64,000 bases of DNA, from NCBI RefSeq assembly GCF_964213995.1, contig NW_027591794.1, positions 1 through 64,000 of the forward strand, read 5' to 3'. The notes under the pieces are model-generated. The model was not told where the DNA came from, did no database searches, and was given only the letters and a program-made list of their open reading frames with translations. Below are positions 9,761-35,140 of this stretch, piece by piece. Origin of the DNA: Mustelus asterias. Its lineage: Eukaryota. Both the position numbers and the translations under genes were made by a program. How positions within the stretch are numbered: the first letter of the stretch is position 1; each line of letters begins with the position of its first letter.

Positions 9761-10247
9761 CAAACAAGCAGAACCAAGCTCTCTTCCAGAATCGCAAGCA
9801 ATGACACAGACAAGCAGGACCAAGCTCCCTTCCAGAATCGCAAGCAGTGACACAGACAAGCAGGACCAAGCTCTCTTCCAGAATCGCAAGCAGGGACACA
9901 GACAAGCAGGACCAAGCTCTCTTCCAGAATCGCAAGCAGGGACACAGACAAGCAGAACCAAGCTCTCTTCCAGAATCGCAAGCAGGGACACAGACAAGCA
10001 GGACCAAGCTCTCTTCCAGAATCGCAAGCAGGGACACAGACAAGCAGGACCAAGCTCTCTTCCAGAATCGCAAGCAGTGACACAGACAAGCAGGACCAAG
10101 CTCTCTTCCAGAATCGCAAGCAGGGACACAGACAAGCAGGACCAAGCTCTCTTCCAGAATCACAAGCAGTGACACAGACAAGCAGGACCAAGCTCTCTTC
10201 CAGAATCGCAAGCAGTGACACAGACAAGCAGAACCAAGCTCTCTTCA
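9761..10247. repeat. 46-bp minisatellite, about 10.5 copies
   Basis: Unit gacacagacaagcaggaccaagctctcttccagaatcgcaagcag(g/t). Confidence 0.95.
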
Positions 10248-31396: not shown

Positions 31397-32143
31397 TCAC
31401 TGGTGTTGCCGCAGGTGGGATGATGTTCTAAATCTCTTTGTGCAGTGAGAGCAGCTGAACGGTCTCTCCTCAGTGTGAATGCGCTGGTGAATCATCAGTT
31501 CCCGAGAGCTTTTGAAACCACTTCCACAGTCAGAACATTTAAAGGGTCTCTCATTGGTGTGAGTGAGATTGTGGTTCAGCAGGCTGGATGACTGAGTGAA
31601 TCCCTTCCCACACACAGAGCAGGTGAACGGTCTCTCCCCAGTGTGAATTCGCTGGTGTATCCGCAGGTGGGATGATGTTCTAAATCTCTTTGAGCAGTGA
31701 GAGCAGCTGAATGGTCTCTCCCCAGTGTGAATGCGCTGGTGAATCATCAGTTCCCGAGAGCTTTTGAAATCACGCCCACAGTCAGAGCATTTAAAGGGTC
31801 TCTCATTGCTGTGAGTGACTTTGTGTTTTGACAGATTGGATAACTGCATAAATCCTTTCCCACACACCAAGCAGATGAATGGTCTCTCTCCAGTGTGAAC
31901 GCGCTGGTGTTTCTGCAGATCGGGTAAATGAGCGAATCCGTTCCCACACTCAAAGCACATGAACGCTCTTTCTCCAGTGTGAACCAGCCGATGTCGCTGC
32001 AGATGATATAACCGAGTGAATCTCTGCCCACACACAGAGCAGATGAATGGCCTCTCCCCAGTGTGAATACGTCGATGAATTTCCAGGTCACAGGGGGCTC
32101 TGTATCTCTTCCCACAGTCCCCACATTTCCACGGTTTCTCCAT
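31397..32143 (-). CDS. ZNF-C: C2H2 protein, 8 complete fingers, cut by a premature TGA in finger 9
   Basis: accATGg at 32143 (MEKPWKC); stop cag-TGA-gtt where paralogues have cag-CGA-gtt; one more finger and the family stop/3'UTR follow (~31300). Confidence 0.88.
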   Translation of the reverse strand: MEKPWKCGDCGKRYRAPCDLEIHRRIHTGERPFICSVCGQRFTRLYHLQRHRLVHTGERAFMCFECGNGFAHLPDLQKHQRVHTGERPFICLVCGKGFMQLSNLSKHKVTHSNERPFKCSDCGRDFKSSRELMIHQRIHTGERPFSCSHCSKRFRTSSHLRIHQRIHTGERPFTCSVCGKGFTQSSSLLNHNLTHTNERPFKCSDCGSGFKSSRELMIHQRIHTEERPFSCSHCTKRFRTSSHLRQHQ

Positions 32144-32958
32144 GGTGCGGGTGTCCTTGTGACTCTCCAGGTTAAACAATCAGTTAAATCTCACACAGAA
32201 TGTGGGTACAGTCTCTCCCTGCTGTGAATGCTGCGATGTATTTTCAGGCTGTGTAACTGGTTAAAGCTCTTTCCACACTCAGTTCACTGGAACACTCTCA
32301 CTCGGGTGTATCTGTGCCTTGGTACTTTTCCAGTCACATTGATATTAAAGGCCCGTTGATGCAGACAGAACAGGGAAACATTTCTCCTTCTAGATTCAAA
32401 GGCCGATAATATTCAGGTCCGGATGAATTGAGTGAGGGTGTCGGATGCTGATGTGATGTTTGTTTCAAGATTTTGGTCTGTCAATCCTCACCTCCTCATA
32501 TCCTGAAACGAGTTTGAAAAATTCATCAATGTCAGCACAGGATAGAAATTCAGAACAGACAATTCCAGTTTCTATGGAACATTCTTCCTCTCTCATTCCC
32601 CAAAAGCTGTAAATCTCCATCCCACACACTCTCCCTCCATTCTCACTCTGCTGTATCTAATATTCACCCTCCCAATTCTCCTGAAGGTGCTGATTGAGGC
32701 TGATTGACAGATCCATGCTCACTGCTTCCTGCCCTGGACACAGAGAGCTGGAAATCTCCATGCAGGCTGCCAGACAGATATATGTCTATCTGACTGGACT
32801 AACAATGTGTGGAATGTACAGACTGGATTCACTTCCTTTCCCTTCAGTTGCTGCAAGTCCCCAATTTTCCCCAGAATGAGAAAATAAATGGAAAGGGGGA
32901 GAAAAGAAAGTGTTTTACTCACAGATGTTGGCCTCTTTTAAGGTAAAAGAAGTGGCTT

Positions 32959-33029
32959 TGCCTTGTTCGGGAATCGAACCCAGGCCTCCCGCATGACAGG
33001 CAAGAATTCTACCACTGAACCACCAATGC
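32959..33029 (-). tRNA. tRNA-Gly(GCC)-derived pseudogene with anticodon changed to GTC
   Basis: gcattggtggttcagtggtagaattcttgcctGTCatgcgggaggcctgggttcgattcccgaacaaggca; A and B boxes intact, two acceptor-stem mismatches and a T-stem mismatch; ttctttt downstream. Confidence 0.88.
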
Positions 33030-33143
33030 ACAGGGCAGAGAAAACTGCTCAGTTCTTTCAACCAGTGCTTTCACATGCAAAGAAATGTTGATGATTTGCA
33101 GCAGCAAATTCAATGCTGCTAACACACACAACAACACTGTTGG

Positions 33144-34375
33144 TTTCTTTTTGTTTATTACAAATACGTTAATACAAAACAATTACAAATACACAAAGAA
33201 CAAATGTGAAAAAAATACATTACCAATGGCTAAACGCCATCCATTTATCAGTTACTACCTTCCATTTCGGAAGGGTTCATCGTCAATTACAGTTTTCCAG
33301 GGCATTGCCCTCAAAATACACCTCCATTTACAAATCATAATCTACAAATCTACAAACATTAACACAACACTACAACTGTACACAACAAAAAAAATAAACA
33401 CTGAAGCATAAGGGCACCGTCCCCTGGGTTTGTCCACCTGCCGGGGGATGCAACCCTCCAGTGGTACTCACATCCGGGGGTTACACCTTACGGATGTTCA
33501 GCCGGAGGGGGGAAATGGGGGAAACCACCCCGCCTACTCAATCCGGAATCCCTTCCGGAATTTCAGCCGGGGCGGTGGGAGAGTCTCTCCAGGGTACTCA
33601 GTTCAGGCCTGCCTTCCCAATTTTTCTCCCGGAGAATAAAAATCCCTCTGGTGTTACTATGTCCGGGGCTTCACCACCCAGAACTTTCCCCAAGTGGATG
33701 TCACACCCCCCGGGGGTGACTTTATCCAGGGGGGGGGATGCCCCCCAGGCCACAAATAACGCAAGAAAATAGACGGGGGCCGGAACAAACCACCAACTAC
33801 CATAACAGGAAAACCACATATTACAATAACAAACAATCCATGAACAACCATACAATTGTGAAACATTTCGGAGACATCGCCTTCCAGAGCTTCGCCCATC
33901 AACATTCCACCGTCCGAAGTCGACAACGCTCAACTACAGTCCTCCAAAGTCCACCACTCCGGGCCAGATCTTCCAAAATCACACTCACTGGGGCTGCACC
34001 GTCTGGGGTCACACCTTCCGCGGCTGAACCTTCCGAAACCATAGTTCCCAAATGGCTCCTCCCTGGCTTGGGCCCTCCGAGACTGCATCCACCCGGGCCA
34101 CGCCTTTCAAGGCACAGGAATCCCAGCGAGAGCAGCATTCAACAAGCCCCAGCCGAAACAAAAAGTTCTTGCACAAGTCACGAACCCAAGCACTTGGAAC
34201 AGAAACTTCACGCCGACCAAGGCGTTCCTCCCAGCGGCCACATTTCCAAAAGCTCACCGCAAGGCGCGCATTAAGCCCGCCTTGAACTCCTTATCCTCTG
34301 CCCGCCCCCTGCCTGGAGCACACCATACTGGCCAACACGCAAAGCGAACGGCCAATATGGTGGACTGGCTGGACA
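33144..34375 (-). mobile_element. Probable 5'-truncated Tx1-like LINE with long structured 3'UTR
   Basis: Minus frame LNARLAVSFWKC...RREVSV...FRLGLVECCSRW weakly resembles Tx1 ORF2 C-termini; GU-rich spacers; AATAAA (33159-33154) followed by caaaaagaaa. Confidence 0.45.
33252..33750 (-). other. Array of hairpins, five carrying a UGAA...AGUA motif
   Basis: Motif copies at 33252-33279, 33454-33509, 33524-33576, 33590-33611 and 33647-33682; G-U pairs and a GGGA tetraloop favour the minus strand. Confidence 0.6.
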
Positions 34376-34389
34376 ATCCAATCTTTCCC

Positions 34390-35140
34390 ACTCACAGAGG
34401 TTGGAGACAGGAGGAAGATTGAATCTATCTGAAGCTCAATCTTTGTTCAGAGAGAGGAGGAGGATGAGCAGCAGTTTGTTGGACAAACAATGGAGGAACA
34501 TTCGTGCAGCCATTGACACAAGGCCCGGACTCTGACTGGCTGGAGGACCAGGGCTGATCCGGTCCTCCACGCATTGCCATTGGTCAATCTGCCGCATGTA
34601 GACAATAAGGGGCGGAACCCGAGCCCACGTGGGGGTGGGCGGGGCTTTGACCGCCAGCCGCACTGAGCTGGTGTCCAATCCGCAGTGTGCTGCTTCTGTA
34701 ACCAGTGATATTGCTGCCAATGGGACACTGCGTGCTGGGAACGCCCCTCTGAGTCATTGTGACGACTCAATCCAACAGCAATCACTCTGCTCCGCGCCAA
34801 CATCCTTGGATCCCAGTGCGCAGGCCCGGACGCCCGGACATGGGAGCCCCGACCCCACCCTTTGTACCCCCCTCCCCCGGCACCTCCTCGAGCCAAGGTT
34901 TCCAGGCACCCGGCCCTGAGGGAGAGGGGAAACTGCGCATGTGCAGGGGAGAGCCCGCCCCCTGACCTTCACGCTGAGGTGTTGACCAATGGGAAGAATT
35001 GGAGGACCGGAAGGACTCTGGTCCTCCAGCCAATCACAGGACGGGCTTTGTGTGAAAGAAGATTGCGCTTCAGACTGACTGAAACTTCCTCCTGTTTGTT
35101 TATTTGGTTTGACCTTAAAAGAGGCCAACATCTGTGAGTA
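34390..35140. promoter_or_regulatory. CpG-island bidirectional promoter with first exons for ZNF-C (minus) and ZNF-D (plus) (P4)
   Basis: Donors gtgagt at 34395-34390 (minus) and 35134-35139 (plus); tgcgcatgtgc, several CCAAT and GC boxes. Confidence 0.75.

Follow-up and report, generated by a model that had tools for sequence, protein, structure and literature searches.

A young non-coding retroposon of Mustelus asterias ends in an array of GAA/AGUA hairpins predicted to fold as bulged-G modules

Anatomy of the retroposon

The array of GAA/AGUA hairpins on the minus strand of the window (the whole stretch of 64,000 nucleotides that was analysed) almost certainly forms the 3′ portion of a retroposon of approximately 1.25 kb that is young, non-coding and present in many copies. 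The insertion and its surroundings are made up of the following features.

34390..34404, minus strand: 5′ copy of the 15-bp target-site duplication; it includes the GTGAGT splice-donor consensus and, judged by this consensus, is likely the donor at the end of ZNF exon 1
33144..34389, minus strand: retroposon body, non-coding, approximately 1.25 kb, delimited by flank comparison; no Pfam or Rfam match
34272..34389, minus strand: head, likely captured host sequence; other sequences take its place in other subfamilies
33144..33847, minus strand: 3′ unit with the hairpin array, often tandem-duplicated; variants are 78–89% alike
33144..33159, minus strand: 3′ terminus of the element, A-rich and with AATAAA
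32958..33030, minus strand: tRNA-like gene, anticodon GTC, past the end of the element and ahead of the 3′ duplication; probably flank that was copied along
32932..32944, minus strand: 13-nt 3′ end of a Tx1-clade LINE
32917..32931, minus strand: 3′ copy of the target site
31397..32179, minus strand (the element's own strand): reading frame for C2H2 zinc fingers, belonging to the host gene

In the genome (3.68 Gb), matches to the array region are mostly 97–100% identical (72 matches, with the best 40 of 367 candidates scored). Searched with two hairpin patterns, the genome gave 367 and 424 matches; the controls gave 2 and 1. Target-site duplications in 14 arrays measure 15 bp in four (two of these at unrelated sites), 11–13 bp in two and 9 bp in two, and none is clear in the remaining six. 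Dispersed copies keep the 3′ end intact and are truncated on the 5′ side. Full and half units are often stacked, with the target sequence between them, and the subfamilies place differing heads before a common core. The duplications, the 5′ truncation, the AATAAA and A-rich end and the stacks together give the anatomy of a non-autonomous retroposon that moves by target-primed reverse transcription, an anatomy described for SINEU in the consulted part of PMC4494074. Organisms D and E also carry the element.

The element has no recognisable protein. The longest sense frame over six variants is 125 aa, no frame has a Pfam match, and none was found for a 184-aa antisense frame either. A reverse transcriptase of its own also appears to be absent, Tx1 ORF2 being unmatched in the common upstream part of old copies. 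The initial annotation knew of no described element of this kind, and an Rfam search likewise returned no family for the array or the element body; the tRNA was the sole match at gathering level, and at E values up to 10 nothing credible fell within the element. A classical SINE was rejected: Rfam gives no tRNA, 5S, 7SL or snRNA head, and the tRNA sits past the 3′ end. A Penelope pLTR or a retrozyme was also set aside, as no hammerhead was found within the element at E values up to 10. In the consulted part of PMC11167929, the terms 'loop E', 'E-loop', 'sarcin' and 'AGUA' each have 0 matches. At least 120 matches to one hairpin pattern on viral contigs were taken as chance, with one match at each of the 80 loci listed.

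Locus L048 has the tRNA-like gene in the same place as the window does, after the element and before the 3′ duplication. This gene and the 13-nt LINE end are likely the product of read-through RNA copying with a template switch, and swapped heads and co-copied flanks in general likely come from the copying of read-through RNA. Genes for tRNA also lie beside the element and LINE ends at L005, L016, L048, L162 and window positions 32958–33143, and at L162 a tRNA fragment is fused directly to the LINE 3′ end.

An older subfamily (L363–L377) has a common 5′ extension of approximately 0.9 kb, for which a matching 3′ terminus was not found; its start has what we take to be a resemblance to a Harbinger-type terminus. 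We considered whether these old copies ride in a DNA transposon. A 3′ inverted repeat is absent in 15/15 and the 3′ flanks differ; we therefore class them as a subfamily whose head is approximately 0.9 kb long. A further subfamily (L095–L097, L034) both carries and inserts at a repeat of approximately 230 bp with CCAAT and TATA boxes, and at L097 another Tx1-like 3′ end adjoins the TCC site that it uses. Elsewhere in the window, a 46-bp tandem repeat occupies 9764–10246 (10.5 copies, 97% match).

Target site and Tx1 LINEs

Among 44 distinct non-tandem 3′ junctions, 30 start with CCA and 11 with TCC. One conserved ZNF-type site, CCAACATCTGTGAGT, accounts for 17 of the 44. It holds a splice-donor consensus and, in the window, is followed downstream by a zinc-finger frame in the same orientation. 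A donor consensus with such a frame downstream suggests that the insertion likely lies in intron 1. By the same consensus, the target is likely the exon-1/intron-1 junction of clustered zinc-finger genes.

The 3′ end of a LINE adjoins the same 15-mer 333 times, compared to 0 for the control. The ORF2 of the LINEs at this 15-mer is mostly 81–92% identical to that of a young family with endonuclease and reverse transcriptase domains. The young family has an intact 1304-aa frame, and its ORF2 is 48% identical over the full length to Xenopus Tx1 ORF2. We regard the retroposon as very probably driven by a LINE of the Tx1 clade. Two findings stand against naming that LINE: ORF2 is intact in 0/13 sampled LINEs at the CCAACA site, and 24/28 junctions of the intact young family are at TCT, a site that lies slightly upstream in the same exon. 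Because of this TCT preference and the 0/13 intact copies at the CCA site, the young family cannot simply be assigned as the present driver. No LINE with the tail of the element was seen among the loci fetched, of which the top candidates were scored, so that the ends in common with an autonomous LINE that would mark an internally deleted LINE (HAL1/Bov-A type) did not turn up in this set. In none of the 15 old copies or of the 20 + 20 + 20 regions fetched is an ORF attached to the tail.

Several Tx1 families occur around these sites. Two short Tx1 3′ ends in the window, at 35112–35139 (plus strand) and 32917–32944 (minus strand), adjoin the same 15-bp site; these sites are opposite-facing zinc-finger gene starts approximately 2 kb apart. 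At L121 (2147–6058) a very young Tx1 family has a TCT insertion in the same first exon. This family has many intact 1304-aa ORF2 frames genome-wide, often in tandem pairs of approximately 7 kb. Several copies of a Keno-like family (L051–L072) are followed on the 3′ side by what we take to be U2 snRNA. In the 3′ UTR of this family, an RGUA-6 nt-GAA motif lies inside a hairpin in 19 of 21 matched copies (4 AGUA, 15 GGUA), with the spacing of the sarcin-ricin loop but lacking the closing pair of that loop; related motifs may be in use in Tx1 tails. At G000:C24:44820143-44932907, a Keno-like LINE end stands beside this presumed U2 sequence in every one of approximately 15 identical tandem units of 8.0 kb. 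Matches to zf-RVT, tried as an autonomous parent, were rejected: they belong to the Keno-like family beside U2, and the tail is different.

The hairpin array

All five segments reported in the initial annotation were located at their places on the minus strand, and the spacings of 60, 60 and 70 hold, with AGUA starting at 33658, 33598, 33538, 33468 and 33256. The hairpins, one of them with revised limits, are as follows.

33647..33682, minus strand: H1; GAA 33672–33670, AGUA 33658–33655; without an inner stem
33586..33635, minus strand: H2 (revised); GAA 33626–33624, AGUA 33598–33595
33524..33576, minus strand: H3; GAA 33564–33562, AGUA 33538–33535
33454..33509, minus strand: H4; GAA 33499–33497, AGUA 33468–33465; pyrimidine mismatches beside the motif
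33247..33284, minus strand: H5; GAA 33278–33276, AGUA 33256–33253

The array of five GAA/AGUA hairpins on the minus strand stands above chance, but one of the five had been mis-registered and the closure is canonical in three only. The hairpin placed at 33611–33590 takes its GAA at 33604, which is GGA in older copies. The GAA at 33626–33624 is retained in 173 of 176 distinct copies and yields the longer hairpin 33635–33586; folded as segments, the two give −16.8 kcal mol−1 (33635–33586) and −3.4 kcal mol−1 (33611–33590). The 176 copies were obtained from 248 extracted blocks, of which 191 were distinct and 15 were dropped by length. H1 is intact in 134 of the 176 and is gone from one lineage, a successful one. 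Most of the hairpins had been described as closed by an outer stem; the minimum-energy fold of the window copy has neither H1 nor the outer stem of H5. The outer stem of H5 differs among lineages, with two double changes.

The frequency of the motif was compared with dinucleotide-shuffled sequence. A loose scanner (GAA, at most 40 nt, AGUA and an outer stem of at least 4 bp) finds four motif hairpins on the minus strand and none on the plus strand, and four were reached in 0/2000 shuffles. None of the 238 other bins of the window reaches three by this scanner. Of the genomic DNA fetched elsewhere, 3915 bins lack the element; one of these bins reaches four hairpins and four reach three. With a strict scanner, which requires canonical closure and an inner stem, one of the five hairpins (H3) passes, and 35/2000 shuffles likewise give one. 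In older copies, H2–H4 have the common core GAA-NN-UCCGG…CCGGA-NNN-AGUA. They look like duplicates, so the hairpin count is not independent evidence. From the presence of this core in older dispersed copies, the array likely grew by duplication. An upstream hairpin at 33695–33745 (minus strand) reads AGUA first and UAA second in older copies, and resembles a permuted sixth unit with the 3′ half followed by the 5′ half.

Both strands of 33240–33790 were folded. The stability is modest, with z of −1.98 for the minus strand and −1.37 for the plus strand, and z is −2.24 for 33440–33760. The argument that G-U pairs favour the minus strand did not hold, as a strand bias was not detected: transitions that pairing would tolerate and those that would disrupt it do not clearly differ in frequency (C>T 12/37, G>A 8/37, A>G 3/14, T>C 5/14). 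It is the polarity of the element that favours the minus strand.

In the sarcin-ricin loop, the arrangement is AGUA-C-GAGA-G-GAA, with AGUA first and the tetraloop two bases away. In domain II of the HCV IRES, GAA precedes AGUA in the loop-E motif. The hairpins of the array have AGUA opposite GAA within a helix, as in a loop-E or bulged-G motif. A canonical pair closes the sheared A-G side in H1, H3 and H5, and is lacking in H4 and most H2 copies; H2 has A-C beside the motif and, in one lineage, A-U. H3 is the closest fit to the canonical bulged-G geometry. The sarcin-ricin order with an adjacent tetraloop is not present: the order in the hairpins is reversed, and the inserts are 11–25 nt. A decoy for proteins that bind the sarcin-ricin loop or loop E, another option of the initial annotation, would thus have to work without the sarcin-ricin arrangement. 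From these letters we predict that the GAA/AGUA hairpins fold as repeated bulged-G (loop-E) modules. Like the bulged-G motif of 5S rRNA and the sarcin-ricin loop, as described in the consulted part of PMC2919703, they place AGUA opposite GAA between two helices. Unlike that motif, GAA comes first here and there is no sarcin-ricin tetraloop, the closing pair is missing in 2/5, and there are five modules per RNA (PMC2919703, same part).

Conservation and role of the motif

The suggestion that the array is a retroelement RNP signal agrees with what was found, as the hairpins make up the tail of a mobile retroposon and the letters of the motif persist from lineage to lineage. The motifs likely keep the RNA fit for copying. 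The chances that they do so by binding a protein in a retroposon RNP seem to us even, from sequence.

The bulged-G loops could also be architectural, splitting long helices into stiff stacked segments without a specific protein partner, and would in that way stabilise the RNA or conceal it from double-strand sensors. We consider this unlikely. It would account for the pairing of 94% of the stem cells of H3 and H4 across lineages, far over the 31–62% of slid controls, and for the tolerated loss of one unit; the consulted part of PMC2919703 calls the GUA/GA miniduplex intrinsically rigid, which also suits such a role. However, seven identical letters are kept in five hairpins that differ in length and sequence, and this exceeds what a mismatch needs. 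The stems had been expected to covary if the main, protein-binding reading is right, and the test counts against this: H3 and H4 have 0 double changes (score reached by 315/500 shuffles) and H5 has 2 double-changed pairs (57/500), in a test whose power is low because divergence is low. The stem rows leave out the inner helix of H2 (5/55 pairs), and the motif-column tests are unaffected by this. In alignment A1, 2/19 rows (L198, L203) are offset and span H3 only in part.

Conservation was then counted on the motif letters, with p values that are all optimistic because the lineages are related. Between old and young lineages, 0/35 motif letters changed compared to 61/413 other positions (p 0.005), and 0/33 compared to 43/360 with gaps and CpG removed (p 0.018). 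Over four lineages the counts are 4/35 and 137/413 (p 0.004), and with gaps and CpG removed 4/32 and 86/332 (p 0.066); the exceptions come mostly from the loss of H1 in one lineage. A per-column test over the 176 copies gave p 0.05–0.12. In organism H, 73 contigs over H1–H4 show two majority differences, neither of them within the motif. The array might still be a neutral by-product, in which one hairpin of an ancestral tail was duplicated and carried along and its conservation is chance among few related lineages. The core common to H2–H4, the negative covariation and strand-bias tests and the conservation tests that were not significant are in line with this. Yet the motif is kept although the lineages are 82–87% alike in the array region; in H1–H4 alone, over three lineages, 0/26 motif letters differ compared to 33/166 others (p 0.005); and both halves of the motif stay while loops, linkers and stems vary. 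A neutral by-product thus appears improbable.

Decay within old copies was measured in nine of them, after 3/12 were dropped for poor alignment. Private changes affect 19/305 motif letters (6.2%) and 252/3392 others (7.4%; p 0.49). The motif is kept between lineages and decays at the background rate in old copies, which indicates selection while the element is copied and not after insertion. We consider it probable that this selection acts at the RNA level. Among the sequencing runs, none of RNA was listed as carrying the element; one contig in the presumed-RNA run X19 is no evidence of RNA, and X11 gave nothing.

At the DNA level, transcription-factor sites in the tail of one copy might drive transcription of the next stacked copy. 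Stacks are indeed common, and H2 of older copies holds CCGGAAGTG, which we take to resemble an ETS site. We find this very unlikely, as CCGGAAGTG is missing from young lineages whereas GAA and AGUA persist, and as conserved letters opposed across stems of varied length suit RNA. That the array is retained by the host to regulate zinc-finger pre-mRNA from within intron 1, which the initial annotation had offered as one reason for its existence, is hardly credible in spite of the shared strand and the many copies at the ZNF-type site, since 27/44 junctions are at other sites, some of them unrelated, and old copies outside ZNF introns decay at the background rate; the host may still put single copies to later use, because the old copies scored lie outside such introns.

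Proposed mechanism

We lean, by a little, towards the following chain as a whole: a transcript that ends at AATAAA, bulged-G hairpins, protein binding, and copying by Tx1 ORF2 at CCA/TCC sites. It would start from the element as it is found, at a 15-bp site with a splice-donor consensus and upstream of zinc-finger exons on the same strand. Transcription would come from the host promoter or from read-through of an upstream copy, and the AATAAA of the element would end the RNA. The rigid bulged-G hairpins would then recruit an RNA-binding protein, encoded by the host or by Tx1, and so substitute for the common 3′ tail that the element is missing. Tx1 ORF2 would nick the target and reverse-transcribe the RNA, a step suggested by the duplications, the truncations and the common site. 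Each insertion is seen to leave the site restored, and stacks build up.

A more specific version is tentative and in our view doubtful: in the germ line, the array of 5S-loop-E mimics would attach to a 5S-RNP protein of the host and thereby bring the element to new Tx1 ORF2. TFIIIA and ribosomal protein L5 may be the partners. If this is true, the 5S-RNP route would parallel that of Alu through SRP9/14 but rely on another RNA motif, and its user would be a passenger hiding in the first intron of zinc-finger genes.

Relation to known elements and significance

The closest comparison is to SINEU-1, -2 and -3 of crocodilians, which, in the consulted part of PMC4494074, are non-autonomous retroposons discussed alongside target-preferring Tx1 families; SINEU-3 has a 16-bp duplication. 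The present element is like SINEU in its tandem copies that sandwich the duplication and in 5′ extensions derived from flanks, and like SINEU-1 in that a LINE with the same 3′ end was not found (PMC4494074, same part). It is unlike SINEU, as described there, in having no U1/U2 head (no Rfam match), in its target at the zinc-finger gene start, and in its body of repeated GAA/AGUA hairpins. It resembles SVA (the MAST2-headed subfamily) and Arabidopsis Sadhu in being non-coding, in its length of approximately 1–2 kb, in not being a classical SINE and in a head that was likely captured from a host promoter region; like them it also seems, from the loci fetched, not to be a deleted LINE (PMC4494074, same part). 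Unlike SVA, whose described driver is L1, it is site-preferring, stacks in place and carries an array of structured motifs. The co-resident LINEs are like Xenopus Tx1L, Kibi, Koshi and Keno in endonuclease, reverse transcriptase and target preference; unlike these families, the element itself has no recognisable protein and no match to their 3′ UTR (PMC4494074, same part).

Searches of the open-access literature turned up no retroposon with a loop-E array, and the conserved multivalent motif is the novel, testable part of the element. The family offers a compact test of how a LINE enzyme picks up passengers without a common 3′ tail, a step that to our knowledge is accounted for only in Alu. 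The element is young and has five copies of one predicted three-dimensional motif that is kept between lineages; its genome also provides an intact Tx1 ORF2, and the 15-bp target is defined. Should a 5S-RNP protein prove to be the partner of the motifs, mimicry of an rRNA motif would join the routes by which retroposons hijack the host. If it does not, the element would still be a passenger of Tx1, uncatalogued by all appearances, whose copies stack in the first introns of zinc-finger genes.
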